A stretch of 64,000 bases of DNA, from positions 2,496,001 to 2,560,000 of the forward strand of contig OZ250150.1 of assembly GCA_965237675.1 (NCBI GenBank), in the 5' to 3' direction. Source of the stretch: Candidatus Latescibacterota bacterium. GTDB taxonomy: Bacteria; Latescibacterota; UBA2968; GCA-2709665. Below, piece by piece: positions 3,053 through 39,875 of this stretch; within the stretch, counting starts at the first letter, position 1, and each line of letters starts with the position of its first letter. The notes beneath the pieces were generated by a model, which saw only the letters and a program-made list of their open reading frames with translations, was not told where the DNA came from and searched no databases. A program made the translations under genes and the position numbers.

Positions 3053-6000
3053 ATGATTACCTCAATTTACGCGGCTTTACAAGGCTTCGCGGCGTCAGTA
3101 ACAGCCAAAATGACACAGATCACGGCTGGTGAGCCCGAAGAGCAACTTCGCGGTCCGTTTGAGAACTTCATGAAGGATGCCGCTCAGGCACTCGGATGGA
3201 AAATCGTCTGCACAGGGGAAACACCCCTGCCCGATCGCATCGGTAAGCCCGATTACGCCGTTCATCTCAACCAGCTTCTTGCAGGATACGTCGAGCTAAA
3301 GGCTCCGGGAGTCGGCGCAACGCACGATCGCTTCAAAGGTCACAATCGCGACCAATTCAAGAGGTTTTCGGCAATTCCTAATATTCTGTACACTGACGGC
3401 AATGAGTGGGCGCTATATCGGGACGGCAATCTGGTCGGTAGTGTCGTTCGCTTGGCCGGCGATGTCGCCACAGATGGCAGGAAGGCTGCCAAATTGAGCG
3501 ATGTCCACTCTGTTGAACGCGTGTTGCGCGATTTTCTATCGTGGGAACCGTCCATCCCCGTGGACCGAGACGGCAAGATTGACCTTAAGGGTTTCGCTTC
3601 GTTGTTGGCTCCGCTATGCCGGATGTTGCGCGATGACGTGAAGGATGCGCTTGCAAATCCGAATTCGTCCCTCGTCCGAATTGCGGAAGACTGGCGTAAG
3701 CTGCTGTTCCCTGATGCTTCGGACGAACAGTTCGCCGACGCGTACACCCAGACCGTGGCCTTCGCTCTGCTGTTGGGTCGGAGTGAGGGAGCGAATCCTC
3801 TCACGCTCAACTCTGCGCGGGACTCGCTTGCCGATCAACATGTCCTGCTGTCGGAGACACTATACCTGTTGGCTCGCAAAAAACCCGATAAAGAGATTGC
3901 CGCTTCACTCAAATTGCTGTTGCGTGTTATTGGCGTGGTTCCACCCGCCACGTTGTCAGGTGGCGAGGATCCCTGGCTCTATTTCTACGAAGATTTCCTC
4001 GCCGTATACGACCCCGCACTTCGTAAAGACGTGGGAGTCTTTTATACACCGGTGGAGGTAGTTCGAGCGCAGGTCCGGCTGATTGACGAACTGCTCGTCA
4101 GTCGTGTCGGAAAACCTTTCGGTTTCGCTGACCCCGGCGTGGTGACGCTTGATCCCGCCGTTGGAACCGGAACATACCTTCTTGGTGTAATTGAACACAG
4201 TCTTCGGCGCGTAAGGGCGGAACAGGGGCCGGGCGCGGTCGCCAGCCAAGCCACATCGCTAGGTCAGAACCTCTATGGTTTCGAATTGCTAGTTGGTCCC
4301 TACGCAGTGAGCGAACTTCGCGTTAGCCGTGCCCTTTGTAGTTACGGAGCAACGCTGCCCCGCGACGGTACGCATATCTACTTGACCAATACCCTCGAGA
4401 GTCCGAACGAAGAGCCCCCCTGGATGCCTTTTGTCGTAGAAGCCATTGCCGAACAGCATAAAAAGGCACTCGCGATAAAGAAATCGGTCCCGGTTATTGT
4501 CTGCTTGGGGAATCCACCCTATGACCGGCACGATGCAGTTGATACGAAAAGTGAGGACAATCTTTCCCTGTATGGAGGGTGGGTCCGCTTCGGGGACCCG
4601 TTGCCCGGCAATCTAGTTAAGGATAAAAGGGGCAGGGAACGAGAGCTAAAGACTGCCAAGTCCAGGCTCGCGAAAAGACAGGATCTTGCTATTCTTAAGG
4701 ATTTCATCGCTCCCGCACGTTCGTCCGGGCATGGTGTCCGTCTCAAGAACCTCTACAACCTTTACGTCTATTTCTGGCGTTGGGCATTGTGGAAAGTCTT
4801 CGAGCATGACACTGCCAAGGGTCCTGGCATTATAAGTTTCATCAGCGCGTCGAGCTATCTCGACGGAGACGCCTACTGCGGAATGCGCGAACACATGCGT
4901 CGAGTTTGCGACGAGATCTGGATACTCGACTTGGGTGGCGAAGGGCGGGGCACACGGCAGACAGAGAATGTATTTGCAATTCTTACACCGGTGGCCATCG
5001 CCGTAGCATTCCGTTCGAAAAAAGCTGCAACCGACAAGCCAGCGAAAGTGTGTTACGCCCAAGTTGAAGGAACACGTCAGGAGAAGCTCGCTTTGCTCGA
5101 CAAAATTGAGAGCTTTGCACACTCTATGTTGAAATGGCACGATTGTCCGGACGAATGGCAGGCTCCATTTCGGCCCGCTGGAACAGGCGATTACTTCGCA
5201 TGGCCGCCACTAACTGACATGATGCCTTGGCAACAATCCGGCGTCAAGGCGGGGCGAACCTGGGTGATTGCGCCTGAAACGGGAATGCTAGACGCACGCT
5301 GGGCCGCTTTACTTCGGGTCGAAAAGGACGACCGGCATGAGCTTTTTAAAGATTCTTCCACGGGACGAAAGGTTCACGAATCCGCTACTCAATTGCCGCC
5401 CTCCAAGGTCATGCTAGAACCCATTACCGAACTTGCAAGAGAGGAGCCACCTCCCAAGACAGTTCGTTTCGCATATAGGTCATTCGACCGCCAATTTATA
5501 TGTGCAGACGCCCGTTTGTTGGATAGGCCAGGTCCTGTGCTTTGGCGCGTTCACAGTGAGCAACAGGTTTTCTTGACGAGCTTGCTTAACCATCCGATTA
5601 GCGAAGGTCCTGCGGTAACGGCATGCTCGTATATTCCCGATCTTCACCATTTCCGTGGGTCGTTCGGTGCAAAGGAGATCTTCCCGCTCTTTCGTGCGTC
5701 CGATGGTTCGCGTACGAACATTTCACCTGGCCTACTCGAGATTCTGTGCAGATCATATCAGCGTAACGTCACACCAGAAGATTTCATTGCCTATGTCTAC
5801 TGCACGCTGGCGCATCCAAACTTCACGGCGCGGTTCAAAAACGAACTGGCCACCCGCGAACTTCGCGTACCACTCACGAAGGACATAGAACTGTTCGAAA
5901 AAGCCCGTGCGTTAGGTGCTCGGTTGCTCTGGTTTCACACTTACGGTGAACGATTCATCCCTGACGATCAGCCACGTGGTCACGTTCCCCGTGGTGCAGC

Positions 6001-6442
6001 CAAGTGTGCCAAGGGCGTTCCCCGGGACCCGGAGAGTTACCCAGACACGTTTACATACAGCGACGTGACGCAAATTCTCCGCGTCGGCGAGGGTGAGTTT
6101 AAGCCGGTTCCGCCCGAGGTATTCGAGTTTGAGGTTTCGGGCCTCAAGGTCGTACAGTCTTGGCTCAAGTATCGGATGAAGAGAGGAGCGGGTCGGAAAT
6201 CCTCACCCCTGGACGAAATTCGCCCAGAACGGTGGACCAGCCAATTTACCACTGAACTACTCCACTTGCTTTGGGTTCTGGAGGCGACGGTGGAAAATTA
6301 TCCCGATCAGGCGCGGCTACTTGAAGCCATTGTCGAAAGCGACTGCTTCAGTGCCGACGAATTACCTAGCGTTCCAGACGAAATGCGCAAACCGCCAAAG
6401 GCCATTAAGGGCGATCTGTTTTACGGGCAGAGCGGAGATTGA
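3053..6442 (+). CDS. Single-chain restriction-modification enzyme (N6-adenine MTase, Type ISP-like C-terminal specificity domain, no helicase)
   Basis: N-terminal PD...ELK nuclease (KPDYAV...YVELK), GVFYTP, SAM motif DPAVGTG, catalytic GNPPY, and YRSFDRQ and FEVSGLKVVQSWLKYR typical of Type_ISP_C. Confidence 0.88.
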   Translation: MITSIYAALQGFAASVTAKMTQITAGEPEEQLRGPFENFMKDAAQALGWKIVCTGETPLPDRIGKPDYAVHLNQLLAGYVELKAPGVGATHDRFKGHNRDQFKRFSAIPNILYTDGNEWALYRDGNLVGSVVRLAGDVATDGRKAAKLSDVHSVERVLRDFLSWEPSIPVDRDGKIDLKGFASLLAPLCRMLRDDVKDALANPNSSLVRIAEDWRKLLFPDASDEQFADAYTQTVAFALLLGRSEGANPLTLNSARDSLADQHVLLSETLYLLARKKPDKEIAASLKLLLRVIGVVPPATLSGGEDPWLYFYEDFLAVYDPALRKDVGVFYTPVEVVRAQVRLIDELLVSRVGKPFGFADPGVVTLDPAVGTGTYLLGVIEHSLRRVRAEQGPGAVASQATSLGQNLYGFELLVGPYAVSELRVSRALCSYGATLPRDGTHIYLTNTLESPNEEPPWMPFVVEAIAEQHKKALAIKKSVPVIVCLGNPPYDRHDAVDTKSEDNLSLYGGWVRFGDPLPGNLVKDKRGRERELKTAKSRLAKRQDLAILKDFIAPARSSGHGVRLKNLYNLYVYFWRWALWKVFEHDTAKGPGIISFISASSYLDGDAYCGMREHMRRVCDEIWILDLGGEGRGTRQTENVFAILTPVAIAVAFRSKKAATDKPAKVCYAQVEGTRQEKLALLDKIESFAHSMLKWHDCPDEWQAPFRPAGTGDYFAWPPLTDMMPWQQSGVKAGRTWVIAPETGMLDARWAALLRVEKDDRHELFKDSSTGRKVHESATQLPPSKVMLEPITELAREEPPPKTVRFAYRSFDRQFICADARLLDRPGPVLWRVHSEQQVFLTSLLNHPISEGPAVTACSYIPDLHHFRGSFGAKEIFPLFRASDGSRTNISPGLLEILCRSYQRNVTPEDFIAYVYCTLAHPNFTARFKNELATRELRVPLTKDIELFEKARALGARLLWFHTYGERFIPDDQPRGHVPRGAAKCAKGVPRDPESYPDTFTYSDVTQILRVGEGEFKPVPPEVFEFEVSGLKVVQSWLKYRMKRGAGRKSSPLDEIRPERWTSQFTTELLHLLWVLEATVENYPDQARLLEAIVESDCFSADELPSVPDEMRKPPKAIKGDLFYGQSGD

Positions 6443-8170: not shown

Positions 8171-8666
8171 ACCGCACGTGTTTCTCCCGATCCCGTAGTA
8201 TCCCACCAATCAATTCCCCGCACCGTCGGAGTATCTTTGCCTGTATTTGATTAGATCCTCGTAAATCACTGCATCCGATGGCACCAGTTGATACGGCTTC
8301 CGCCACCACCAGTCCGAATTACAGATCGCTCATGCGATGCACCGGTGCGTTCGTAAGGTACAGACGACCATTACGGCGGGCAGGGTTCGCAGTCACCCGC
8401 TCGCCACAGAGGGTTGGAGAACAGCGCATCGAACAGATTTCCCTTGACTCGAAGCGGTTCTTGAAGTTCCTTCCTTATCTGGCGAATGAACTCCGTTTGT
8501 GCAGTTTGCGGTTGGCATTGTGCATTGTGATTTCGCGAAATTGAGTCGTCCCGTTCACTCCACTTCCAGGCGCGAGGAAGGAAGAGCAAAGTCGGATGTT
8601 CTTCAGTATTCCGGCGTCTGTACTTCGAGGGCGAGGAAACGGGTTTTTTGTTTACCTCGGGATTTT

Positions 8667-10301
8667 ATGCAGTCCATATCAGAGTTTCTAAGCGGAAAGA
8701 CGCTGTTTGTCACCGGTGCGACGGGGTTTCTGGCGAAGGGATTCGTGGAGAAGATCCTGTTTTCCGCGCCGGAGGTGGCGCGGATCTATCTCCTGATCCG
8801 GCCGCGGTCGCGTTCCAAGGGCCAACGGGTTTCCGAAACGGAACGGCTGGAGTCGGAAGTCCTTCAGTCGCGCGCGTTCGCAAGGTTGAGGACGAGGTGG
8901 GGCGCGGCGTTTCCTTCGGTCATGGCGGACAAGGTCATCGCGGTCGCCGGCGATCTGACCGAAGACGGACTGGGGATTTCCTCCGCGCAGCGCGAGCGTC
9001 TGGTCGAAGAAGCGGATTTCGTTGTCAACTACGCCGGCACCGTGGTTTTCGACGAACCCATCGACAGTGCGCTCGAACAGAATACAATGGGCGCCGCCCG
9101 GGTCGTGGCCTTCGCAAAAACCTGCCGGAAAGCCGCGCTCGTTCACGTGTCAACCGCGTACGTGAGCGGACAGCGGACCGGCCGGATTTCCGAGGCTCCG
9201 TTCCCCACTGACCGAAGCGTGGCGGATCTCATCAACGGAAGCGCGGCCGGGTTCGACCTGCAGGGAGAGATCGATGCCATTCGCGCCTTTGCCGACGAGG
9301 TGCGGGCGTCTTCCCGGCGGCCGGAACTGGAGGCGGCGTTCCTGAAACAACTCAGGCGTCAGGACCGGGGCAAACGCGTGACCGACTACCGGAAAGCGCA
9401 CCAGGTCGAGGCCCTTCGCCAGCGCTGGATCCGGAAGCAGTTGGTGGACGAAGGGATGCGCCGGGCGCGGCGGCTGGGTTGGAACGACAGTTACACGCTC
9501 ACCAAGGCGATGGGTGAGCAGTTGATCGTGAAGTCGCGGGGAGAACTTCCAACGGCCATCGTCCGGCCGGCGATCGTGGAAAGCAGCCTCGAGGATCCTG
9601 AGCCGGGCTGGGTGGAGGATCTGAAAGTGGCCGATCCCCTGATCGTCCACTACGGCAAAGGCCGGCTGTCGAATTTCCCCATCGATCCGGGGATCGTGCT
9701 GGATATTATACCCGTGGACGTGTTGAACAACGCCGTCACGGCGGTTCTTCCGCAGATACGCCGATCTGGGGAGATCAAGGTCTACCAGGTGGCCTCGGGT
9801 TCGCAGAATCCGGTGCGGGCGGGTGAAATTGTCGAACTGGTTTACGGGTACTTCAAAACCTCGCCCATGCAGGACCGGGACGGGCGGCCTATTGAAGTCC
9901 GGCCCTGGCAGTTCATCAGCAGGAGACGATTCTTCTGGATCGTTGTCTGGAAATACAAGCTTCCGCTGAGCCTTTTGAAGGCGGCCGTGGATTATTTGCC
10001 CGCCCGATGGTTTTCCCGTTACCGGCGGCGGGTTTCCGGCATGGAGACCATGCTGGAAAGGCTCGAGTCCCTGGTCGATATATATTGCGGGTACACCCAT
10101 CTCGACTGCGAATTCGAAACGGAGAATACCCGCCGGCTGTTCCAGGCGCTGAATCCAGAGGACCAGAAGGTTTTCAACTTCGACGTGACGCGCATTAACT
10201 GGCGGAAATATATCCAGGAGATTCACATTCCGGGATTAAAACACCACGTATTGAAAGAGGGGGACGGAGCGGTTTCCGTGTTAACCGCCGAAGCCGATTG
10301 A
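8667..10301 (+). CDS. Alcohol-forming fatty acyl-CoA reductase (NAD_binding_4 plus Sterile domain)
   Basis: TGATGFLAK, HVSTAYV, catalytic YTLTK, IVRPAIV, DIIPVD and C-terminal FNFDVTRINW match the FAR/Male-sterility family. Confidence 0.9.
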   Translation: MQSISEFLSGKTLFVTGATGFLAKGFVEKILFSAPEVARIYLLIRPRSRSKGQRVSETERLESEVLQSRAFARLRTRWGAAFPSVMADKVIAVAGDLTEDGLGISSAQRERLVEEADFVVNYAGTVVFDEPIDSALEQNTMGAARVVAFAKTCRKAALVHVSTAYVSGQRTGRISEAPFPTDRSVADLINGSAAGFDLQGEIDAIRAFADEVRASSRRPELEAAFLKQLRRQDRGKRVTDYRKAHQVEALRQRWIRKQLVDEGMRRARRLGWNDSYTLTKAMGEQLIVKSRGELPTAIVRPAIVESSLEDPEPGWVEDLKVADPLIVHYGKGRLSNFPIDPGIVLDIIPVDVLNNAVTAVLPQIRRSGEIKVYQVASGSQNPVRAGEIVELVYGYFKTSPMQDRDGRPIEVRPWQFISRRRFFWIVVWKYKLPLSLLKAAVDYLPARWFSRYRRRVSGMETMLERLESLVDIYCGYTHLDCEFETENTRRLFQALNPEDQKVFNFDVTRINWRKYIQEIHIPGLKHHVLKEGDGAVSVLTAEAD

Positions 10302-10428
10302 CCGGCCTGTGGGCGTTGGAGGTTCAAGGTCGTCAACGGTCGTAGATTCCCGTGATCGGGACGCGTCCGGGGCGTTTCGGAACCGGGGGCGGGCGGGCTT
10401 CCGGCTCTTTTTTTGGGACTGTGGACGT

Positions 10429-12369
10429 ATGGATCGAAATCAATCGGTTCCCGTGCACAAGATGCTGGTGCAGGATCCGGCACGGCTGTGTATCGCATAC
10501 GACCAAGCCGCCGCGGAACTGATCGCGGCCGTGACGCCCGAGGGCTATTTCGAAGGGTGGGCGCCCGAGGATCTGACGTGGCCGGCCGGCGGCCCCGAAG
10601 AGATCGGACTTGAAGGACTGGAAAAGCGGGCGCGGATCGTGAACGCGATTCACCAGGGCGTTCCGGCGCTGCGAGACAGGCGTTTGAAGGAGGCCCACGC
10701 CAATTTCGACGAACTGACACCCGCGTACCACGAAGGCAGCAGAATCTACCTGCGGCTGCAGGATCAGTTCGTGTCCACGGGCGCGGGCACGGCACGGGAT
10801 TTTCTCAAGCGCTACCAATCTCTGTACGTGGAGGCGCTGGCGAAGGGGGACGATTTTTCGCCTGACATGGGCGAGACGTCCCTCGCGGAAGCCCGGATCT
10901 CCCGGGTGCCGTTGTCCCACGCCAGGGCCGTGGCGGAAGCGCTTTCCCGCGTGGCGATGGACGACGATCCTCTTTGGGAGGCCGAATACGTCTGTACGGT
11001 GGATGGAACAACGTGGAAGGGATCCCTTCGGAAACTCCTGGAAGACGTGGCTGCGCGGACGTTGCACTACATTGCCGCCGGAGAGCTTCTCGCCACGCGC
11101 TACAATACGTACAACAACCTGGGATGGTTCGGCAGTTCGGTGTGGAAGGTGGTCGCGGAAGCCGATGTCCTGCTGTGCCGGATGGAAGAAATTGATCCCG
11201 CTCGCTTGGCGGCCCTTAAGGCGGACGTGGCCCTGGGCCAGAGCATGCTGGTGGAGTTTCTGGCGGCCCACCGGGAAGATCCCTCCCGGCTCAGGCCGGA
11301 GAATTACTGGTACGGGCAGCCGTACAGTTATCTGACGCGGGATATGGTCGACCTGAGCGCCCGAATCGTAGATGGCGTGAATACGGTGGTACGAGAACGG
11401 GACGGGTTGACGGATATGGCGCTCCCTCCCCTGCTGGCCGGCACCCGGACCGGTCGGTTTCTGGACTACGCTCACGTGGGAAAAACGGAGGAACTGACGT
11501 CCTTTCGGCGCAAGCTCCGGATGTTGCGGTGGGCAAGGTGCTGCTGGCGGGTGGGGAAACGCAGGCGACGGATCGCGGAGGAGGATCTCGCGCCGTCTCT
11601 CAGGCACCAGCGTGCGTGGGACGTCTGGCTGGCGTGGTCCCGGGATACGATGGATGCGTTCGGCATCCGCCTGGATGTGACCGTGGCCCCCATGTTTCGC
11701 ACGCTCGTTCGGGAAATGGACCTTTCCGGTGGCGGTCAGAAGATTCTGTTCCTGCCCTCGCACCAGAGCATGCTGGAGCATTTCGTGGTGTTTTCGGTGT
11801 TCAACGATCCGGTGTTTCTGGATGCCATGGGATGGGATCGTTCCCGCCCGGTGGTACAGTTGGCCCGCACGGGTCTGGCGAAGTCGACGTCGGTGAAGAT
11901 CGGATCCCGCGAGATCAGTATCTTCGGTATGTCTCCCGACAAGTTCGACCGGATGTTCGAGACCGTCGACGGCTTCATCACTCGAGACAGCGTGGATATC
12001 TCATCCCATACGATTCCGCGCATGCTGCAGGAGATGGAACACCGCCCGGGTCTGATCTATCCGATGGGCACAACGGCTTCCTTCGACGTGCAGTTGTTTC
12101 CGCTGCAACACGCTTTGTTTGCGAAACTGCCCCAGGACGTCGTGATGATTCCCATCGCCTTTCGCGGCAGCCATTCGCTCTGGCCAAAGTGTCCGGCGCG
12201 TAATCTGAATATCAATCCAGGTGTGATCGAGGCGGTGATCTTACCACCTATGCCAGGCGAGACCACGTTGCTGCCTCGCCGCCGGTCCCTGCGAATCCAG
12301 CTGGAGGCCGCCAATCTGCTTCAGGCGGTCCATATATCGAATTTGCTGAATCCGGAACCGTCGCAATGA
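10429..12369 (+). CDS. Uncharacterised N-terminal domain fused to a divergent glycerolipid acyltransferase (LPLAT/PlsC fold)
   Basis: The C-terminal third has LFLPSHQSMLE (HX4E variant of HX4D), LIYPMGT (variant of FPEGT) and MIPIAFRG. Confidence 0.65.
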   Translation: MDRNQSVPVHKMLVQDPARLCIAYDQAAAELIAAVTPEGYFEGWAPEDLTWPAGGPEEIGLEGLEKRARIVNAIHQGVPALRDRRLKEAHANFDELTPAYHEGSRIYLRLQDQFVSTGAGTARDFLKRYQSLYVEALAKGDDFSPDMGETSLAEARISRVPLSHARAVAEALSRVAMDDDPLWEAEYVCTVDGTTWKGSLRKLLEDVAARTLHYIAAGELLATRYNTYNNLGWFGSSVWKVVAEADVLLCRMEEIDPARLAALKADVALGQSMLVEFLAAHREDPSRLRPENYWYGQPYSYLTRDMVDLSARIVDGVNTVVRERDGLTDMALPPLLAGTRTGRFLDYAHVGKTEELTSFRRKLRMLRWARCCWRVGKRRRRIAEEDLAPSLRHQRAWDVWLAWSRDTMDAFGIRLDVTVAPMFRTLVREMDLSGGGQKILFLPSHQSMLEHFVVFSVFNDPVFLDAMGWDRSRPVVQLARTGLAKSTSVKIGSREISIFGMSPDKFDRMFETVDGFITRDSVDISSHTIPRMLQEMEHRPGLIYPMGTTASFDVQLFPLQHALFAKLPQDVVMIPIAFRGSHSLWPKCPARNLNINPGVIEAVILPPMPGETTLLPRRRSLRIQLEAANLLQAVHISNLLNPEPSQ

Positions 12370-12459
12370 GAATCCGCGCCGGGACGTCCGGGGTTATCCC
12401 TAAGGTTTGGTCGGCCGCGTTCGCCGGGCTCGGCCGGTTTCGGTAATCGGGAGTGCGTT

Positions 12460-14307
12460 ATGACTGACTGGGGAATTGCAGCGGTTGCCGTAGCGGTTGT
12501 TCTCGCGGTAGCGCTTCTGGCGAAACGGAGGCGATCCGAAAGCGAACCGGACGCTTTTTTCGATCATTCCGAAGCGGAACGATTCCCCCACAAGTGGGGA
12601 TATACGGATACGAGGTTCGAGTTCGTAGACGACCGGACAGTGAGGGTAACCGGGAGCCGGTACCCGATTTCGGGATACCGGATGCCGTTTCTGGTCGCCT
12701 TTGTGGAGGACGTGCTGGGCATTGCGATCCGAAGGGAAGACTCGTACGAAGAGCGTGAGGATACCGGAACGCCGGAGCCGAACGTGGAAGCAGCTTTCGG
12801 TAACGCGGTGAAAGAACGGTTCAGAGAAGGGCAGGTTTCGTTCGATCCCAAAGCCAGGCTGGTGCACAGCCACGGACAGCTGAGTGTTGAGGAAGTGTAT
12901 CGCGTGATGTATGGAGATTCACTTCCGCGTCTGGTCGATCTGGTGTTCTATCCGGAGGATGAGGCCGACGTCAAGGCCATGATCGAATTGGCCAACGAGC
13001 ACAATGTCTGCCTGGTGCCGTACGGTGGGGGGACCAATGTGAGCGGGGCGCTGGCGTGTCCGCCAGACGAGCGGCGCACGATCGTTTCCGTGGATATGCG
13101 TCGGATGAACCGGGTGCTGTGGATTGACGAGGCGAATCTGCAGGCCTGCGTCGAGGCGGGTATTTCGGGAAAGGAACTCGAGCACGTGCTCGGTGAGCGG
13201 GATTACACGTCGGGGCACGACCCGGATAGCGTGGAACTGTCCACGATGGGCGGGTGGATTTCGACCAATGCCAGCGGGATGAAGAAGAACCGGTATGGCA
13301 ATATAGAAGACATCGTGCTCGAGGCGACGCTGGTGACGCCCACCGGCGAAATCGCGACCCGCCGGGTGACGCCCAGAAACTCGACGGGTGTCCAGCCCAG
13401 GGTGTTTTTGTTCGGCAGCGAGGGCAATTTCGGCATTATCACCTCGGCGGTGATCAAGATTCATCCGATCCCCGAGGCGCGTAAGTACGGGGCGCTTGTT
13501 TTTCCGGCCTTCGAGAAGGGCGTGGAATATTTGAAGGCGCTTCGGCAGACCGGAATGCTGCCGGCGAGCATCCGCCTGGTCAACAACAACGAATTCAGGT
13601 TCGGGCAGGCACTGAAACCGGAGCCGACATTTTTAAAGGGCGTCAAAGACCGGATCCAGAAGTTCGTTCTGATAAAGGTCCTGGGTTTCGATCCGGAGAA
13701 GATGGCGGCATGTACCATCGTGATGGAAGGCACGCACGATGAAGTGCGCCAGCAGGAACGCACGATCTTCAGCCTGGCGAAAAAATACGGCGCCAAGAGC
13801 GCGGGCGCGAGCAACGGCAAGCGGGGATACTCGCTCACGTTCGGGATCGCCTATATTCGAGACTTCCTGAATCAGTACGGCATTCTTGGCGAGACATTTG
13901 AGACGTCTGTCCCATGGGATCGGGTTCATCAGGTGTGCGATGCGGTATCCGGCGAACTGGTTACGCAGGCCGGCAGCTACGGCGTCCCCGGAAATCCCTA
14001 TCTCTCGTACAGGGTGACGCAGACCTATCATACCGGAGTCTGCATCTATTTTACGATGGGCATTTACGGCAAGGGCCTTGATCGGCCCGGCCGGGTGTTC
14101 CACGCGATCGAACACCGGCTGCGTCAGGTGATTCTGGACAACGGAGGCTCCTTGTCGCACCATCACGGCGTTGGCAAGGTGAGGCGGGAATTCCTGCCTC
14201 AGATTCAGACCGATAACAGCATCCAGGTCATGCGCCAGGCGAAGAACGCGATGGATCCGAAGAACATCTTTGGGATACGCAACGGCGTTTTTGGGGGAAC
14301 TGACTGA
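12460..14307 (+). CDS. Alkyl-dihydroxyacetone-phosphate synthase (AGPS-like FAD enzyme) with an N-terminal membrane anchor
   Basis: KWGYTDTRF, PYGGGTNV, GHDPDSVELSTMGGW, ASGMKKNRYGNIED, IAYIRD, ETFETSVPWD, RVTQTY and GSLSHHHGVGK all follow AGPS motifs in order. Confidence 0.9.
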   Translation: MTDWGIAAVAVAVVLAVALLAKRRRSESEPDAFFDHSEAERFPHKWGYTDTRFEFVDDRTVRVTGSRYPISGYRMPFLVAFVEDVLGIAIRREDSYEEREDTGTPEPNVEAAFGNAVKERFREGQVSFDPKARLVHSHGQLSVEEVYRVMYGDSLPRLVDLVFYPEDEADVKAMIELANEHNVCLVPYGGGTNVSGALACPPDERRTIVSVDMRRMNRVLWIDEANLQACVEAGISGKELEHVLGERDYTSGHDPDSVELSTMGGWISTNASGMKKNRYGNIEDIVLEATLVTPTGEIATRRVTPRNSTGVQPRVFLFGSEGNFGIITSAVIKIHPIPEARKYGALVFPAFEKGVEYLKALRQTGMLPASIRLVNNNEFRFGQALKPEPTFLKGVKDRIQKFVLIKVLGFDPEKMAACTIVMEGTHDEVRQQERTIFSLAKKYGAKSAGASNGKRGYSLTFGIAYIRDFLNQYGILGETFETSVPWDRVHQVCDAVSGELVTQAGSYGVPGNPYLSYRVTQTYHTGVCIYFTMGIYGKGLDRPGRVFHAIEHRLRQVILDNGGSLSHHHGVGKVRREFLPQIQTDNSIQVMRQAKNAMDPKNIFGIRNGVFGGTD

Positions 14308-14393
14308 CGGAGAAATTGGGGAAAGGCGACGGATGGGTCGTGCTCCGAGCCCGCAAAGTCTTTCTCTTATCTCTTTTAATATTAATTTTTTAC

Positions 14394-14666
14394 GCCCTTT
14401 TTCTTTCTCGCCAAAGAAAAAGGGCCAAAAAGAACGGCGCCGCTCGGCGCGGGGCCGTTCTTTCCGTGAACCACCTTAGCAGCCCGTTGAAAAAGTCCAT
14501 CCGGGCTGCGTCCGGCCCTCCGTTTCGCTAAACGGTATGTGGCGGTATGGTCTTCTTCCGTCTACCCTCTAGCACGGAAAAACCCCCCACGTGTTTTCGG
14601 TCTTGCCGCCAGGTTCACCTCTACCGACTTTAGCTGACGGCTGTCTACTGACCGCCGATAGCTGAC
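14394..14666. repeat. Intergenic composite repeat: palindrome, dispersed GC-rich repeat, IS-end-like motif and heptad array
   Basis: CCCTTTTTCTTT/AAAGAAAAAGGG hairpin at about 14394-14423; GCAGCCCGTTGAAAAA at about 14479; heptads AGCTGAC GGCTGTC TACTGAC CGCCGAT AGCTGAC at 14632-14666. Confidence 0.55.
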
Positions 14667-14684
14667 TTTAAATGGTTTTTTTTT

Positions 14685-15491
14685 ATGTTCGACGGAAAGA
14701 TCGTTGCGATAACCGGAGCGTCGTCGGGTCTGGGCGCCACGCTGGCGCTGGCGTTCGCGGAATATGGAGCCGATCTGGCACTGTTCGCGCTGGACGAGGG
14801 TGTACAGGACACGGCGGCGCGTTGCCGGGAGCGGGGCGGCCGCGTGATTACGGCCACGGGCGACGTTGGAAAACCCGAGGACTGCGAGGCGTGGATCGGC
14901 GCGGCCGTTGCCGAGTTCGGGGCCGTGGATTATCTGATCGCGTGCGCCGGGATCAGCATGTGGGCCAGGTTCGACGAGGTGGAGGACCTGGGGATTTTCC
15001 GCAGGTTGATGGACACGAACTATCTGGGTATCGTGCATTGCGTGTATTACGCGCTGCCCCATCTGAAAGCGCGCGACGGGATGGTGGTGGCGATATCGTC
15101 CATTCAGGGCAAGATCGGCGTGCCCATGCACACGGGATACGTGGCCTCCAAGCATGCCGTGCAGGGGTTCTTCGAGTCGTTGCGGACGGAGTTGCTCGAC
15201 ACCGGCGTGGACGTGCTTACGGTGCTGCCACACTGGCTGCGCGGGACCAATTTGCGCAAGGCGGCCTTCGGAAAGGACGGCGGCTCCCTGGGCCCGTCCA
15301 GCCGAAAGCACAGCAGGGAGTCGATTTCGCTGGACGACGCCTGCAAAGCCATCATCGAGGCCATGAAAAAGAGGAAGCGGGAACTGATTATTCCGTTCAA
15401 GCTCCGTTTTCTGCCCTGGCTGCACCTGATCCATCCGAAGATCGTCGAATACCTGGTAACGCGAGGCGTGGCGAAACAGGAGAAGGGTTAA
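14685..15491 (+). CDS. Short-chain dehydrogenase/reductase, DHRS7B-like
   Basis: TGASSGLG, catalytic S (ISSIQGK) and YVASK. Confidence 0.9.
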   Translation: MFDGKIVAITGASSGLGATLALAFAEYGADLALFALDEGVQDTAARCRERGGRVITATGDVGKPEDCEAWIGAAVAEFGAVDYLIACAGISMWARFDEVEDLGIFRRLMDTNYLGIVHCVYYALPHLKARDGMVVAISSIQGKIGVPMHTGYVASKHAVQGFFESLRTELLDTGVDVLTVLPHWLRGTNLRKAAFGKDGGSLGPSSRKHSRESISLDDACKAIIEAMKKRKRELIIPFKLRFLPWLHLIHPKIVEYLVTRGVAKQEKG

Positions 15492-15537: not shown

Positions 15538-16227
15538 TCAGGAAAAGAGTCCATCCACGTCCAGGTGTTGTTCAATCAATTCGGGCATGCATCCAAGGTC
15601 GCCGGCGTCCACGTCCACGCCGGAATCGTAGGGCAGGATGCCGAGGGACGGAATTCCGGAGACGCGGAAGATCACGTCCGGGCTGGTGCGGGCGGCGCGC
15701 GGATCGCCGTCCCGGGTGGTATTGTAGACGACGCCTCTGACCTCCAGGTTGCGCTTTTCAGCGGCTTCGAGCGTCAGCAGGGTGTGATTGATCGTGCCTA
15801 ATTCGGCGCGGGCGACCACCAGCAGGGGCAGGCCCAGCCGGCCCGCGAGGTCCGCGACCATGACATCATCCCGAATCGGAACCAGCAGGCCGCCCACGCC
15901 CTCCACGAGAACGGTTTCGTGAAGGGTTGCCAGGCGACGATAGGCATTGACGATGGGTTCCAGGTGGACGTGGCGACCTTCCAGTTCGGCTGCCACGTTG
16001 GGCGACAGCGGCGCGGCGAGGCGCACGGGGTTGATCAATTCGAGGGAATCGGAGACGCCCGCGGCATTCTTGAGGAATCGCGCGTCGGTTGTGCCGCCGG
16101 ATGAGACCGGCTTGAACACGCCAACGTCAACCCCGCGGCCGCGAAGGACGGCGGCGAGACCGGCGGTCACGGCGGTTTTGCCCGCACCCGTGTCGGTGGC
16201 GGTGACGAAGAATCCCCTGGGTCGCAT
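15538..16227 (-). CDS. bioD: Dethiobiotin synthase
   Basis: TATDTGAGKT, FKPV, LVEGVGGLLVP and LGTINHTLLT. Confidence 0.95.
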   Translation of the reverse strand: MRPRGFFVTATDTGAGKTAVTAGLAAVLRGRGVDVGVFKPVSSGGTTDARFLKNAAGVSDSLELINPVRLAAPLSPNVAAELEGRHVHLEPIVNAYRRLATLHETVLVEGVGGLLVPIRDDVMVADLAGRLGLPLLVVARAELGTINHTLLTLEAAEKRNLEVRGVVYNTTRDGDPRAARTSPDVIFRVSGIPSLGILPYDSGVDVDAGDLGCMPELIEQHLDVDGLFS

Positions 16228-16310
16228 TTTCAATGTGTCTCCGGAAGCGGGGCGAACCCGTGCAGTCGCGCCCGGGGGTCTCTTTCAGGCCGCCGACAGG
16301 CGGCTTCTGA

Positions 16311-34655: not shown

Positions 34656-37376
34656 TTAGAACAGGAAACCTCCACGCAGATAAACCCCCGTCAAGTCATC
34701 CCCTTTTACCAATGCCGCGCTCAAGGTGTGCCTGCGCTTTAAGAACGACAGCCAGAATCCACCCCCGATGCTGGTGTGCCATTTGCCGGCATTTGCGGGA
34801 TCTCCGTCATAAAATACCCGGCCGGCATCGGCCGTACCGAACAGACCCAACTCTCCCGCCACCAGGAGCCTGACTCTGGCCAGAACCAGCCGCAATTCGG
34901 AATTTCCATACAGCGAAGTATCTCCAGCGAACCGGTTTTTCCGGAAACCGCGTAAGTTGCCTCTGGAAATGCCGGTGCCAAGAGCGCCGGGTCCGCCCAG
35001 AAAGGCGCTTTCGTAGAAGGGAAAAGACCCCCATACCTTCTTGCCGCCCACTCGAAGTGCAAGGGTCGGGTTCGTCGGCATGCGCGCAGTCAGGTAAGTA
35101 CTTGCTTCCAGGTCTATGTTTCCAAAGGTCGAGTCCACAGTCCGGATTCCCGGGTAGACGGCTCCGGCAACCCTGAGCCAGATACCCTGAGTGGAATACA
35201 GCGGGTTGTCACGCATATCGCAGCTGATTTCTGCCTGTGCGCCTACCTGTGTGACGGAACCCGTACCGTACAGAGGTTGATCGAGCGAACCGATAAATTT
35301 CCCCTTATTGGCGTCGAGCGGTACATTTGAATACTTTATGATCGGCCCAAAGTCAATGTTTAATTTCGAGCGAAGCGACTCGATACCAACTCTGGGCACA
35401 TCTTCTTCATGATCTCTTGCTCGGTACCCGAGGGCCGGTGCGAAAACGAAGAGTCCTTGCTCCAGCTTATAGAAGGAAGTCGGTTGCGACATCTCCGTAT
35501 TGTTCCCGAATCCGTTGAACCGCAACAACTGGATTCCGGAGTACTCGACGTGGACCCTCGCATCGAAGGAGCGCACCGGCTGGCGAAAGTGTCCGGTGTA
35601 GGAAACAAATGGCTTGACGCTCTCGGGACGATCAAGTGCTGCAAGCCCCACGGTAAAATTGTGTTGTGAAGAGAAGGGGTCTTTCCGATAACCGTAATAC
35701 TGCCTGATGTGCTGTACTCCCGCGTACACGTGGAGGTCCGGATTAATCAATAAGATCGGTAGATTTGCAGTCCGCCTGCCCCAATCCAATGCGTACCTGG
35801 CATTCGGCGTATGCGATCCGGCAGGCCGCTGGTAAGAACGCTCGTCGATCCCCGCTCCGCCGCCCGTGACGAACCGGTTCATTCCACGTGAATCATAGAA
35901 ACGGGTCTTTGAGGCGCCTGCGTGGGACGAGTTCGCGAGCGTGTCGTCTCCACCTCCGCCATCGATGCGAACGACAATCCGCCCGCTGTTTCCTGATATT
36001 TCCGCACGGTCATCTCCCCCCCGGAGGTGAATGCGGACTTCCCGGGTTTCTTTGGGATTGAACGTCCTTTGGAACCAGGGCGCCTTCCTTTCACCACGAG
36101 CGCCTTCCATCAGACCGATACGGACTCCGAGATCACCGTTCGGCAGGTGCTCGCACTGGACGTACTCGTCCTGGTCCGTTGCCAGGATTTCGGCCTCCCG
36201 GTATATAAGATTATAGTACCTGGTGGCAAATTCAGGCAAAGCGTTCCGCCTCGATTTGAGGGCTTCGGCCAGAGTCTTCCCAACCATCTTGAAATACGGT
36301 GGTGGCAATTTTCTTACGGCGTCCTCGATAACCTTTTTGGGCAGACTCGCGCAAAAGGCCGTTACTACCGAATCCCACGCAGCCTTGTCGAGCTCGGCCA
36401 GGAATTCGCGGTCTATTTCCCAACCAGTCGTCGTGAGGCCGATTAGACTGGGATACGTCCTCTGGAACTGTATTTGTATGGGGAATTGTCGCCGCGCTAT
36501 CGTCATGGCAAGTCCTTCGAAAAGGATAAATGCCTGGTCGCGATCCTCGGGTATCGGGCGCCAGGTATGACAATCGCCGTCAGGAAACCGCGCCCATCTC
36601 CACTGCCCGTAATGGCGGTCCTTGTCGTTGATGAGAAAATCCATCAGTCTCGCATTCAGAAAGGCACGGGCATCCACGCGGTTGCATGGGCTTTTTTCCA
36701 GGTGTTTCCTCAGCTTCTCCGTTCCACTGACCTTCCGGGAACCGGCAAAGCCGGGCGTATCGTCCGGCCCTTCGGAAGGATGTTCCTGCAGCATGCCAAT
36801 CAGTCCGGCAAACGCTCCCCTGTACTCCTTAAGCCTGGGATCGTCCGGAATAACGACGAGCGTATGCCTGGAATGGAGGATACCTGCGGCCTTCATCAGC
36901 GGATCGACCACGAGCGCCCCCGTTGGCAGCATCGCGCAGATCAGATCCTGAAGGACGTCGCCCACGAACGTATCCGCGATTCCGTCGGGGACCCTCCTGG
37001 TGGCATCCTTATCCAGCGAACGCACTGTATACCTACGGCCGTCTTTCCCTGTAAAGTGAAGAGAGATAGATTGTCCGAAGCCGCCGGTGCGAAGAGGCGT
37101 CAAGCCACCACCTACGCTGTCGAGATCCAGGACTGCAACCTCGATTGGCGTTGTCCAGAGGTCCCGGTAATTGCTGCCGTAGAGCCAGCGGTTGAATCCG
37201 CCGGCTCTGAACCTTTCCCCGGGAATCACCATATGAGTCCGGGCGCCCTTCGGAGGAATGGATCGCTGAATCATGGACCCGGGAGCCGGTGAACTCCTTT
37301 GAGGTGTGGATTCCGTGGGAACAGAAAAAGCGAGCACTATCAGGAGCAGAACCGGGTTCCATCTGGAAAACATCAT
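34656..37376 (-). CDS. Omp85/BamA-like barrel protein with an N-terminal kinase-like domain
   Basis: Signal peptide; GGFGQS...RSLDKD and DFLINDKDRHYGQW; barrel motif LRGF and a terminal Phe (GGFLF). Confidence 0.7.
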   Translation of the reverse strand: MMFSRWNPVLLLIVLAFSVPTESTPQRSSPAPGSMIQRSIPPKGARTHMVIPGERFRAGGFNRWLYGSNYRDLWTTPIEVAVLDLDSVGGGLTPLRTGGFGQSISLHFTGKDGRRYTVRSLDKDATRRVPDGIADTFVGDVLQDLICAMLPTGALVVDPLMKAAGILHSRHTLVVIPDDPRLKEYRGAFAGLIGMLQEHPSEGPDDTPGFAGSRKVSGTEKLRKHLEKSPCNRVDARAFLNARLMDFLINDKDRHYGQWRWARFPDGDCHTWRPIPEDRDQAFILFEGLAMTIARRQFPIQIQFQRTYPSLIGLTTTGWEIDREFLAELDKAAWDSVVTAFCASLPKKVIEDAVRKLPPPYFKMVGKTLAEALKSRRNALPEFATRYYNLIYREAEILATDQDEYVQCEHLPNGDLGVRIGLMEGARGERKAPWFQRTFNPKETREVRIHLRGGDDRAEISGNSGRIVVRIDGGGGDDTLANSSHAGASKTRFYDSRGMNRFVTGGGAGIDERSYQRPAGSHTPNARYALDWGRRTANLPILLINPDLHVYAGVQHIRQYYGYRKDPFSSQHNFTVGLAALDRPESVKPFVSYTGHFRQPVRSFDARVHVEYSGIQLLRFNGFGNNTEMSQPTSFYKLEQGLFVFAPALGYRARDHEEDVPRVGIESLRSKLNIDFGPIIKYSNVPLDANKGKFIGSLDQPLYGTGSVTQVGAQAEISCDMRDNPLYSTQGIWLRVAGAVYPGIRTVDSTFGNIDLEASTYLTARMPTNPTLALRVGGKKVWGSFPFYESAFLGGPGALGTGISRGNLRGFRKNRFAGDTSLYGNSELRLVLARVRLLVAGELGLFGTADAGRVFYDGDPANAGKWHTSIGGGFWLSFLKRRHTLSAALVKGDDLTGVYLRGGFLF

Positions 37377-37485: not shown

Positions 37486-39735
37486 TCAAAACCCAAATCC
37501 GATTGCTGCATTAATCTTGATATCCTTTTTTTCATTGCTTACAATATCAACGCGAATGGGACCCAAAAGCGACGTGTAGACATAGCCCCCAATTCCAAGA
37601 CCGTGGATAGGGGTATAATCCTGCGTCGGGTTTGAACTCATATCATATAGTCCGCCCTGATAGAAAATTCCGATACCACTGCGTGGCACCGACTCCCAGA
37701 ATTTAACCTGTCTCCATATGGATATGCCGACCGATGCGAACCTGGCAACCCGCAGTTCATCCCGTTTGAGACCCACCACCGGCAATGCCGCGCTACTGAA
37801 GTGTCCCGCACCGCCCAGCGGGAAGAATTCGAATACCGGCGCAGGCTGTGTCACATAGCCTCCATGGGACCAGAGGCCCACACTCCATCGCGATCGGGGA
37901 CTGGCGAAGAACGCGAGTTGGGTTTGAACTTGCTTATGTGAAAACGTCCGATGAATCCATTTTGCCCGTGTGTGAAAATAGATGCCTCGCGTTGGCACCA
38001 TCGAGTCGTCTCGCGTGTCAATACCTGCGGATAACCAAAAGCCGGGTAGGTATTCGGACGCATCGCCAATTGAACTGGCAGCATAGCGGATACGTGCGTG
38101 CTCCACCTGGTACCCAACCTGGAAACCGCCCCAACTGTTGAACAGTGCCTGCAATCCAAGTCGCGAGCGAAAACGCCTTTCTTCGTACCCGCCCTGGCGT
38201 TGCCGATTTCGAAAATACAAACGCTCCTGATCCCAAACCTGAACCTCCCCCAGCAGACCAAATCGCCGGGAGGACCGGAAAATCATGACCAGTTCAGCGA
38301 AATTCAGATTGCCCACCATGCCGCGCAAATAAAGCTCCGATATGCGGCCAAGGGTATTCTGATGCGCGATCTCGCCCAGTACCGAAACCCGGTAATCGTT
38401 GTTGTAATGAATCCCCACTTTCAACTCGCTGGGGGGGTTTTCGAGCACGCGAAAAACCAATTCGGTCTGGCCTTCATGAAAGACAACATGGAAATCCACC
38501 GTTTGAAACAAGCCGGTCGCATGCAACCGGCCGCACTCGCGTTCCAGTTCCTGAAACGATATAGGCTTATTGACGAACTTTTCCAGGCGCAACCTGAACA
38601 AGGCCTTTGAATAACGCTTTACACCCTCTATCCGAGCCCGGTCGATTACGACATCCGGCGGTATATCCGCCCATGTACTGACATCAAACTCGACTGGCAA
38701 CCGGGATGTTCTCGGTTTTCCGACGCGTTTTGGTACTCCAAGCTTCTGCAATGCGGTCCAGATCGCGTCCAATTCCTTTTCGGTTGCGCTTTCACCAATC
38801 GGAATCAGCGTATACGACCGATTGAAATCGCCTCCATCGAATTTATCCAGGTCGGGCAAAATCAACACATGGGAGCGTTTTCGGTTTGCGATTTTTCTTT
38901 CTTCTATTCGAAAACTGACGGCCTGATCGATGACGTCGATAATATCCTGAATTTCGTCTTTCAGAGTACGCAGGGGCGTGGCGCAATCCACGGCAATGAC
39001 AAAATCGGCGCCGGCGTCCAGTGCGACGTCCACCGGCAGATTATTGACGATGCCGCCGTCTACGAGATGGGTATCTTCCGTACTCAGCGGTGCAAATACC
39101 CCTGGAACTGAAATACTCGCTCTGATCGCCGCACCGAGAGAGCCATTATCGAGCACGACCTGTTCTCCGGATAGTATATCTGTTGCAATTGCGCGAAAGG
39201 GCGTTGGAAGCCGATCAAAATCGTTTCGCGCCCGAAAAGTTGCGCCGAGGGTCAATCGATTCAAAAATTGATGAATCTTTTGCCCGGCAAAAATTCCATA
39301 GGGCAATTTCAGTTTCAGTTCTTCAAGGTGCAATGCAAGCATCTGACGGTCGGCCATCGGTTTGCGATTCATGTTCGACAGACGGCGGTCGGGGCTGTTG
39401 CTGGTAATCTCCCACCAGTCTGTCTCCAGAATAACGCGTTCGAGATCGTCAACGGAATATCCCGCGGCGTACAGTCCCCCCACCAGTGCGCCGTAACTCA
39501 CCCCCACAATCATGTCTATAGGTACGCCTTCGCGCTCGAGTACGCGCAACACGCCGATATGCGCCCCTCCGCGTGCGCCGCCCCCGCTCAGCACGACCGC
39601 GACACGGGGCCTCTGATTCGCAGACGAAGGTAGCGTGCTGAACGCGGCAAAACCGAAACACAATAATAACACGCTCCGGACGAATGGGCGCTGAACCCTC
39701 ACGCGTTTTTTCAGGTGGCATTTTTCGCCCGTCAT
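37486..39735 (-). CDS. Patatin-POTRA-Omp85 barrel phospholipase (PlpD-like, type Vd)
   Basis: LSGGGARGGAHIG, GVSYG nucleophile, VDGG, a POTRA-like segment and terminal IGFGF. Confidence 0.88.
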   Translation of the reverse strand: MTGEKCHLKKRVRVQRPFVRSVLLLCFGFAAFSTLPSSANQRPRVAVVLSGGGARGGAHIGVLRVLEREGVPIDMIVGVSYGALVGGLYAAGYSVDDLERVILETDWWEITSNSPDRRLSNMNRKPMADRQMLALHLEELKLKLPYGIFAGQKIHQFLNRLTLGATFRARNDFDRLPTPFRAIATDILSGEQVVLDNGSLGAAIRASISVPGVFAPLSTEDTHLVDGGIVNNLPVDVALDAGADFVIAVDCATPLRTLKDEIQDIIDVIDQAVSFRIEERKIANRKRSHVLILPDLDKFDGGDFNRSYTLIPIGESATEKELDAIWTALQKLGVPKRVGKPRTSRLPVEFDVSTWADIPPDVVIDRARIEGVKRYSKALFRLRLEKFVNKPISFQELERECGRLHATGLFQTVDFHVVFHEGQTELVFRVLENPPSELKVGIHYNNDYRVSVLGEIAHQNTLGRISELYLRGMVGNLNFAELVMIFRSSRRFGLLGEVQVWDQERLYFRNRQRQGGYEERRFRSRLGLQALFNSWGGFQVGYQVEHARIRYAASSIGDASEYLPGFWLSAGIDTRDDSMVPTRGIYFHTRAKWIHRTFSHKQVQTQLAFFASPRSRWSVGLWSHGGYVTQPAPVFEFFPLGGAGHFSSAALPVVGLKRDELRVARFASVGISIWRQVKFWESVPRSGIGIFYQGGLYDMSSNPTQDYTPIHGLGIGGYVYTSLLGPIRVDIVSNEKKDIKINAAIGFGF

Positions 39736-39875
39736 CTGGTTCCCTGAATGAGATGGATTCGACCGCCTTTGAGGTCGCACTTCGGAAAAACAACCTGAAT
39801 GATTCAGCGCGCCGGGGTCTGAGGACCGTTCGTTTCAAGGTAATGTGGAATGATGAGCCCGGAATCTCCAATACG

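Follow-up and report, generated by a model that had tools for sequence, protein, structure and literature searches.

A stretch of 64,000 nucleotides from the genome of a Candidatus Latescibacterota bacterium (GenBank assembly GCA_965237675.1, contig OZ250150.1, positions 2,496,001 to 2,560,000; this whole stretch is called the window below) contains a cluster of four consecutive plus-strand genes which, according to the list of open reading frames (ORFs) and to domain scans, span window positions 8667-15491. In this order, they encode a fatty acyl reductase (FAR), a predicted acyltransferase of an apparently undescribed family (AT), an alkyl-dihydroxyacetonephosphate synthase (AGPS), and a classical short-chain dehydrogenase/reductase (SDR). 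We consider it probable, with considerable room for doubt, that the four genes specify a route from dihydroxyacetone phosphate (DHAP) to 1-O-alkyl-sn-glycerol-3-phosphate, that this route is the main one of the lineage, and that AT is the sole candidate for its sn-1 acyltransferase. The features of the cluster are as follows:

8667..10301, plus strand: FAR, alcohol-forming fatty acyl-CoA/acyl carrier protein (ACP) reductase of 544 amino acids (Pfam NAD_binding_4 and Sterile; start at an internal Met at 8667)
10429..12369, plus strand: AT, 646-amino-acid acyltransferase of a putatively undescribed family (predicted PlsC-like lysophospholipid acyltransferase (LPLAT) fold; H-x4-E motif)
12460..14307, plus strand: AGPS, alkyl-dihydroxyacetonephosphate synthase of 615 amino acids (PDB 4bby, E 2.5e-152; 2uuu, E 3e-87)
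14685..15491, plus strand: classical SDR of 268 amino acids, proposed acyl/alkyl-DHAP reductase (adh_short, 2.2e-43; PRK06181)

In the proposed route, the FAR would reduce acyl-CoA or acyl-ACP to a fatty alcohol, AT would transfer an acyl chain onto DHAP, AGPS would exchange this acyl group for the fatty alcohol with formation of the ether bond, and the SDR would reduce the keto group. The sn-2 position would be acylated by a single PlsC-like enzyme encoded elsewhere in the host genome, and acyl-DHAP, reduced either directly or after the AGPS reaction, would serve as the de novo entry to all glycerolipids. The products are predicted to be plasmanyl (alkyl) lipids rather than plasmalogens, because no PEDS1/CarF was found: a search with PF10520 gave no match in the host genome or in the 168 species genomes of the phylum, and none in the control genomes either. 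The lack of a CarF/TMEM189 match, which had been noted before for the stretch, extends to the genome and the phylum in a search that had no positive control.

As judged from sequence comparison, the product of the third gene is a bona fide member of the alkyl-DHAP synthase family. Besides the Pfam domains FAD_binding_4 (2.5e-39) and FAD-oxidase_C (5e-36), it can be aligned over residues 44-608 with residues 94-656 of guinea-pig AGPS (4bby; E 2.5e-152, 511.8 bits), and it matches Dictyostelium AGPS (2uuu) with 296.8 bits (E 3e-87). The AGPS-specific N-terminal extension is present, the alignment with 4bby setting in far ahead of the FAD domain (residue 44 of the query, residue 94 of the chain). 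The next family, comprising D-lactate dehydrogenase and similar FAD oxidases, reached at most 90.4 bits; an assignment as D-lactate or glycolate oxidase was rejected on the basis of this value and of the glcD model TIGR00387, which gave 160.5 bits at a cut-off of 567.9. By bit score, the protein therefore groups with the AGPS structures and not with these oxidases, and the HHHGVGK motif named for it in the original prediction is found within the sequence SHHHGVGK at residues 566-573. Residues R372, Y530, and H567-569 do not vary among the 22 sequences compared and align with Arg419, Tyr578, and His615-617 of the guinea-pig enzyme, which we take to be catalytic residues according to the structural literature; the 4bca chain has F at the Tyr position of 4bby that is aligned with Y530. 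AGPS is present in a single copy in the host genome. At its N-terminus (window 12460-12540), a hydrophobic stretch of approximately residues 4-21 is followed by KRRR and looks like a membrane anchor, as predicted from the sequence.

The FAR contains the domain pair NAD_binding_4 (7.3e-63) and Sterile (1.8e-16), both above the Pfam cut-offs, and this pair suggests, in agreement with what had been claimed for the first gene, that the enzyme forms the alcohol in a four-electron reduction rather than the aldehyde. The motifs GATGFLAKG and YTLTK are visible in its translation. It shares 43-52% identity with the N-terminal reductase part of ElbD-like fusion proteins of 1400-1480 amino acids and is the sole FAR found in the host genome, in which no fusion of AMP-binding, carrier-protein, and acyltransferase domains was detected, an ElbD-like query having matched only this FAR and unlinked AMP-binding genes. 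The SDR matches adh_short (2.2e-43) and the NCBIfam model PRK06181 (286.7 bits, cut-off 215), and the TGxxxGxG and YxxxK patterns are present in its translation as ITGASSGLG and YVASK. Among solved structures, clavaldehyde dehydrogenase and 11-beta-HSD1 match it best (E about 2e-23).

For the second gene, an unusual acyltransferase with an LPLAT fold in place of GNPAT had been proposed, and the predicted fold, which matches that of PlsC, bears this out. By sequence, AT is not a GNPAT: the window protein gave no Pfam match at E <=1 and no NCBIfam match, and hence no significant match to PF01553 or to GNPAT/GPAT models, and sequence and profile searches of the PDB returned chance matches only (E >=0.24). 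PF01553 is touched by 11 of 26 family members, at best with 8.9e-8. The consensus motif LFLPTHQSLLDH of the family corresponds to an H-x4-D box, and the window protein (LPSHQSMLEH) and its close kin have H-x4-E instead; the 26 aligned sequences all share H445 and H451, and each of them has D or E at position 450. In the AlphaFold2 model (pLDDT 86, pTM 0.90), residues 356-646 form a PlsC-like LPLAT domain according to both Foldseek and VIA-align. The best Foldseek match is PlsC (5kym; E 4e-4, probability 1.00, TMt 0.61), and alignment of residues 356-646 of the model with PlsC by VIA-align gave a Z score of 14.9 and a root-mean-square deviation of 3.6 Å with 233 of 241 residues aligned. Ranks 1-16 of the Foldseek matches are occupied by LPLAT enzymes (PlsC, GPATs, LpxM, PatA, GPAT1), save for three Wzc rows with a probability of <=0.07, and in the ESM Atlas 20 of the 30 nearest clusters carry PF01553 (score 0.92). 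Residues 1-355 represent a conserved helical domain, for which realignment of the Foldseek matches of the whole-protein model yielded generic helical-bundle matches only (Z <=6.2). A search of 1.84 billion representative proteins with the family profile gave 66 matches, seven of 607-665 amino acids and the rest shorter, which were attributed to the family or to fragments of it by length alone; fused forms were not found among them, the longest match having 665 amino acids. Open frames of 1042-1139 amino acids around some AT copies of one family of the phylum (f4) look like upstream read-through. Taken at the level of the structural model, these results indicate that AT belongs to an undescribed acyltransferase family with an LPLAT fold, which is missed by standard annotation.

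The distribution of the four genes was analysed in the 168 species genomes of the phylum, the host genome being 99.93% complete in three contigs. AGPS is present in 125, AT in 132, a FAR homologue in 131, and an SDR orthologue (counted at E <=1e-50) in 120 of the 168 genomes. AGPS and AT occur together in 123 genomes, and the two genomes with AGPS and without AT are 75% and 78% complete. Each of the 120 SDR-bearing genomes also carries AGPS. Five AGPS genomes lack the SDR; two of them have a divergent AGPS, one has an SDR truncated at a contig end, and two are fragmented. Gene neighbourhoods were compared within 10 kb on either side of AGPS in 40 of the 125 AGPS genomes, picked to span genera, and around AT for 80 of the 127 AT-centred loci found, some arrays being cut by contig ends. 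The AGPS-centred loci comprise 12 with FAR-AT-AGPS-SDR, one with FAR-AT-AGPS, 21 with AGPS-SDR only, and six with AGPS alone, and the AT-centred loci 35 with all four genes, four with FAR-AT-AGPS, eight with FAR-AT only, and 33 with AT alone. The same order and strand recur across loci, and the four-gene arrangement is more than chance. Within the host's order (families f1 and f2), the full array is the typical arrangement. Co-conservation of the cluster, proposed earlier as a check, therefore holds in part: all four genes stand together in 12 of 40 and 35 of 80 loci, but they are not universally linked, and one large family keeps only AGPS and SDR adjacent.

The coupling of AGPS and SDR is found in two forms. 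In 33 of the 40 AGPS-centred loci, the SDR follows AGPS at a distance of at most 2.5 kb. A second, divergent AGPS lineage, which is 46-48% identical to the window AGPS, occurs in G038 (L054:7902-10483) and G151 (C4:36332-38832) and is directly followed in both genomes by a different classical SDR with 24% identity to the window SDR; the two alternative copies are 50% identical to each other, and in G038 the divergent pair lies downstream of FAR-AT. The divergent AGPS and the alternative SDR are an independent AGPS-SDR pairing. The fourth gene, which had been called an SDR and is now tied to AGPS in 120 of 120 SDR genomes, thereby becomes a named candidate for a bacterial alkyl-DHAP reductase that is backed by two independent AGPS-SDR pairings. 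The flanks of a second AGPS copy in G094 and the AT neighbourhood L136 in f4 were also considered and set aside as uninformative, the flanking genes being unrelated.

In family f4, the FAR homologue is mostly located inside ElbD-type open frames of 1400-1480 amino acids. These frames (e.g. G101:C1:1198444-1202478) contain reductase, AMP-binding, carrier, and PF01553 domains and coexist with a stand-alone AT and an AGPS-SDR pair, so that two candidate ether-lipid routes are present per genome.

A wider context for AT is given by the genes which the host class has lost. The class (families f1-f4 and the host genome; 132 genomes) was compared with the other 36 genomes of the phylum. PlsY (PF02660) and the C-terminal domain of GpsA (PF07479) each gave no match in the 132 genomes of the class and matches in 29 of the 36 others; for PlsX (PF02504), the numbers are one of 132 and 33 of 36. 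The sole PlsX match within the class (G145:C8:68072-69016) lies in an assembly of 10 contigs with 7% contamination and may be foreign. The host genome itself has no match to PlsY or PlsX and a single one to PF01553, a PlsC-like frame of 272 amino acids, so that PlsB is missing as well. Exactly one PF01553 match was also obtained in all but one of 15 genomes of the host genus and in all 21 genomes of genus g11, and PlsB thus appears to be lost in the class, as far as counted. Outside the host class, plsY and gpsA adjoin each other. PlsY and GpsA of four other Latescibacterota find nothing in the host genome at E 1e-3, and the genes that flank plsY-gpsA in those four genomes map to a single block of the host genome (C1:3975366-3981552), in which the two genes that flank plsY-gpsA in G007 are separated by 10 bp (3978849 and 3978839). 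Both plsY and gpsA have thus been cleanly deleted from the block. The distribution of AT mirrors the losses, with AT present in 130 of 132 genomes of the class and in two of 36 outside it. In G008, a 99% complete genome of another class, FAR-AT is present and PlsX, PlsY, and GpsA are absent. A further genome, G031 (family f13), has neither PlsY, GpsA, and PlsX nor AT and contains an ElbD-like frame of 1449 amino acids with a PF01553 domain, possibly another non-canonical start to lipid synthesis.

Because the class is without GpsA, PlsX, PlsY, and PlsB, AT is the only candidate left for acylation of the sn-1 position and, going by gene content, probably the lineage's only sn-1 acyltransferase. 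Without GpsA, DHAP itself would be the incoming backbone, and its reduction would follow the acylation step. Acyl-DHAP is thus probably the lineage's main entry to glycerolipids, and AT is probably a housekeeping enzyme and not dedicated to a side pathway. A more far-reaching version, according to which the whole class abandoned GpsA and then PlsX/PlsY or PlsB, makes all of its glycerolipids via a eukaryote-style acyl-DHAP route begun by the new AT family, and has AGPS-made sn-1 alkyl ethers as a major, perhaps dominant, part of the membrane, is put forward tentatively, as a serious possibility that falls somewhat short of even chances. If true, monoalkyl glycerol ethers in sediments, deep lakes, and sponges would come to a significant extent from this uncultured class, which has so far gone unrecognised as a source.

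The cluster has also reached genomes outside the host class. The four genes are adjacent, in order, and on one contig in G034, a genome of another class, and a closed 3.15-Mb chromosome labelled Trueperaceae carries them in the same order; AT is present in only two of the 26 genomes around the latter (the chromosome itself and 25 relatives). In the AGPS tree, the copies of G034 and of the Trueperaceae-labelled chromosome nest within the clade of the host class (support 98/95). Both genomes have kept PlsY, so that the only evident role of AT there would be in the ether route, which favours DHAP as acceptor. On a 2.0-Mb chromosome labelled Gammaproteobacteria (G168:C1:1753164-1754916), AGPS is read as two pieces that overlap, as would be expected from a frameshift or from an error in the assembly; FAR-AT is located elsewhere in that genome, and no PlsY was found in it.

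Two further features belong to the layout of the locus:

10383..10404, plus strand: terminator-like hairpin followed by a T run, in the FAR-AT intergenic region (hairpin scan)
15538..16233, minus strand: bioD (dethiobiotin synthase), convergent, boundary of the cluster and outside the system (TIGR00347, 5.9e-49; AAA_26)

FAR and AT are encoded separately, with 127 bp between them. The reading frame of FAR is open already from 8499 (ORF 8499-10301), and the ORF of AT extends over 10309-12369. The alignment of its relatives begins at Met 10429, giving 646 amino acids, and the terminator-like hairpin argues for the same start, the hairpin scan as a whole not being above chance (six sites versus 8.8 expected). 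The original description of four consecutive plus-strand genes with a convergent bioD was confirmed by the ORFs, Pfam, and TIGR00347; adjacency of bioD to the cluster is retained solely in the host's family. No RNA data set was listed for the cluster among 21 runs.

Several findings weigh against the proposed DHAP route. The 377-bp gap 5' of the SDR and the hairpin 3' of FAR interrupt the array, and a single transcript for the four genes is therefore only presumed; moreover, the genes are dispersed in family f4, and AGPS-SDR alone was kept in the 21 AGPS-centred loci mentioned above. In AT, the Asp of the motif, which is present in most relatives, is replaced by Glu in the host genus, the arginine of the usual EGTR sequence (block III) is missing, the protein reading GTT, and the fold resembles GPATs and human GPAT1 (Z 7.9-8.4) less closely than it does the sn-2 acyltransferase PlsC (Z 14.9). 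The gene losses are shared by descent and correspond to about two independent events, one in the host class and one in G008. The host genome encodes a true glycerol kinase (672.6 bits, cut-off 590), by which glycerol-3-phosphate (G3P) could be formed from glycerol. AT occurs without AGPS in nine genomes; the five of these that were tested have no SDR, three of four tested lack the alternative SDR too, and the AGPS-less AT genomes are also without PlsY and GpsA, so that AT may accept G3P or another reductase may exist. The same AT-only genomes and the glycerol kinase, together with the near mutual exclusion of AT and PlsY in the phylum, would fit an explanation in which AT is a new glycerol-3-phosphate acyltransferase that replaces PlsX/PlsY and is inactive on DHAP, acyl-DHAP being supplied by a side activity or another enzyme and the place of AT in the operon reflecting a general clustering of lipid genes. 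We regard this as unlikely, since the absence of GpsA from all 132 genomes of the class leaves no visible de novo source of G3P, since the host genome contains no other candidate for a DHAP acyltransferase, and since AT travels with FAR, AGPS, and SDR into the PlsY-keeping G034 and Trueperaceae-labelled genomes, where a second glycerol-3-phosphate acyltransferase would be redundant.

FAR and AT might also constitute an ElbD-like, AGPS-independent ether-lipid or wax-ester module which a separate AGPS-SDR module merely adjoins. FAR-AT occurs without AGPS nearby in eight of the 80 AT-centred loci, whole-genome searches found no AGPS in G008, G037, and G039 (at E 1e-60) or in the Eisenbacteria-labelled G170 (at E 1e-30), and both the similarity of FAR to the reductase part of ElbD-like fusions and the location of the f4 homologue inside such fusions point in this direction. 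AGPS, however, needs a fatty alcohol and acyl-DHAP, for which the host genome has only this FAR and this AT; G038 has recruited another AGPS lineage to the corresponding place downstream of FAR-AT; and the profile search of 1.84 billion proteins revealed no sequence relation between AT and the acyltransferase domains of ElbD. Such a two-part arrangement is in our judgement very unlikely. As for the last step of the module, AT could be the sn-2 (AGPAT-type) acyltransferase for 1-alkyl-glycerol-3-phosphate instead of the first enzyme, in line with its best structural match, PlsC, and with the annotation as AGPAT of the ElbD-type acyltransferase domain in a preprint (bioRxiv 10.1101/2025.10.10.681575). 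This assignment would leave the class without any sn-1 acyltransferase and AGPS without a source of substrate, and a PlsC-like enzyme is already present in the genome; we hold it to be highly improbable. We thus prefer the DHAP route, in which AT would use DHAP and perhaps also G3P as acceptor, the SDR would act on acyl- or alkyl-DHAP, and the final lipids would be those predicted above.

Elsewhere in the window, two tandem genes for patatin-like phospholipases (1.5e-34 and 9.4e-33) are located on the minus strand at 37486-42122, the second of which is fused to an Omp85-type domain. They adjoin a gene for a 906-amino-acid protein without a Pfam match (34656-37376), and this stretch has a G+C content of 0.51-0.55 versus 0.59-0.65 elsewhere. 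Lower-G+C stretches are also present at both ends of the window, one with a Type ISP restriction-modification enzyme (3053-6442; Type_ISP_C, 9.5e-74) and the other with an Eco57I-type methylase/restriction protein (59165-63196; 1e-19).

Bacterial ether lipids are used as environmental and geological markers, and their producers and pathways are poorly constrained. We know of no cultured member of the Latescibacterota with a measured lipidome. The idea of a DHAP-based ether-lipid operon is not new, and agps in Latescibacterota bins has already been surveyed: among 92 Black Sea bins of the phylum, 67 were reported to have Agps homologues and 50 to have ElbD homologues (PMC11868695), and bins from sponges gave matches to agps and to a 'standalone elbD', the phylum being described as not yet associated with ether-lipid capacity (bioRxiv 10.64898/2026.06.23.733905). 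For Myxococcus xanthus, a preprint describes an operon in which MXAN_1676 is an AGPS with about 42% identity to human AGPS, MXAN_1675 a FAR-GNPAT fusion, and MXAN_1674 a member of the epimerase family, and reports that deletion of MXAN_1676 blocks the ether lipid of the AGPS route; it further argues that eukaryotic FARAT and PEDS1 come from Myxococcota, the AGPS signal being too weak (bioRxiv 10.1101/2025.10.10.681575). In the literature found, as far as accessible, there is no account of the AT family, the four-gene array, the AGPS-SDR coupling, or the loss of GpsA and PlsX/PlsY in Latescibacterota, and the supplements of PMC11868695 and bioRxiv 10.64898/2026.06.23.733905 may list the genes. 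The AT family and the loss of the usual pathway in the class look new. The original prediction of a complete DHAP route stands with regard to the gene assignments, each of which is supported, and the host, which nothing in the window had marked as a myxobacterium, is a member of the Latescibacterota; the concept was already known from M. xanthus, and the lineage-wide gene losses had been missed. The cluster provides a complete, testable gene set for an aerobic DHAP route outside the Myxococcota. A class that has lost GpsA, PlsX, PlsY, and PlsB would depart, as bacteria rarely do, from the textbook scheme of how phospholipid synthesis begins, and AGPS proteins of another phylum that score 512-536 bits against the animal enzyme bear on the proposed origin of the eukaryotic pathway in Myxococcota.

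In comparison with known systems, the cluster resembles the AGPS operon of M. xanthus (MXAN_1674-1676) in the combination of a bacterial AGPS with FAR, acyltransferase, and reductase. Compared by description only, it differs from that operon in that FAR and AT are separate genes in the order FAR-AT-AGPS-SDR, the reductase is a classical SDR and not an epimerase-family protein, and no CarF was found; moreover, AT has no sequence relation to any other acyltransferase that was detectable in the profile search. With ElbD of the M. xanthus elbB-elbE cluster, the lineage shares the reductase, with 43-52% identity between the FAR and the corresponding portion of ElbD-like proteins, and such fusions are carried by family f4, whereas the host genome has no multidomain fusion and ElbD works without AGPS. 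PlsC of Thermotoga maritima (1-acyl-glycerol-3-phosphate acyltransferase; 5kym) has the closest solved fold to residues 356-646 of AT, including the N-terminal two-helix element; AT differs from it by an identity of about 10%, the additional conserved helical domain of 355 residues, and the absence of the block III arginine. In yeast and trypanosomatids, dual G3P/DHAP acyltransferases and an Ayr1-type reductase convert DHAP via acyl-DHAP to lysophosphatidic acid without free G3P. DHAP acylation followed by reduction is likewise implied for the Latescibacterota class by the loss of GpsA and PlsX/PlsY; it runs beside the G3P route in these eukaryotes, whereas in the class it would be the sole de novo route, and a bacterial one. 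The same four chemical steps as in the animal peroxisomal pathway (FAR1, GNPAT, AGPS, DHRS7B/PexRAP) are proposed here, with a homologous AGPS (511.8 bits) and a FAR composed of the same two Pfam domains, but with a different LPLAT family in place of GNPAT, without an organelle, and with no PEDS1 found.

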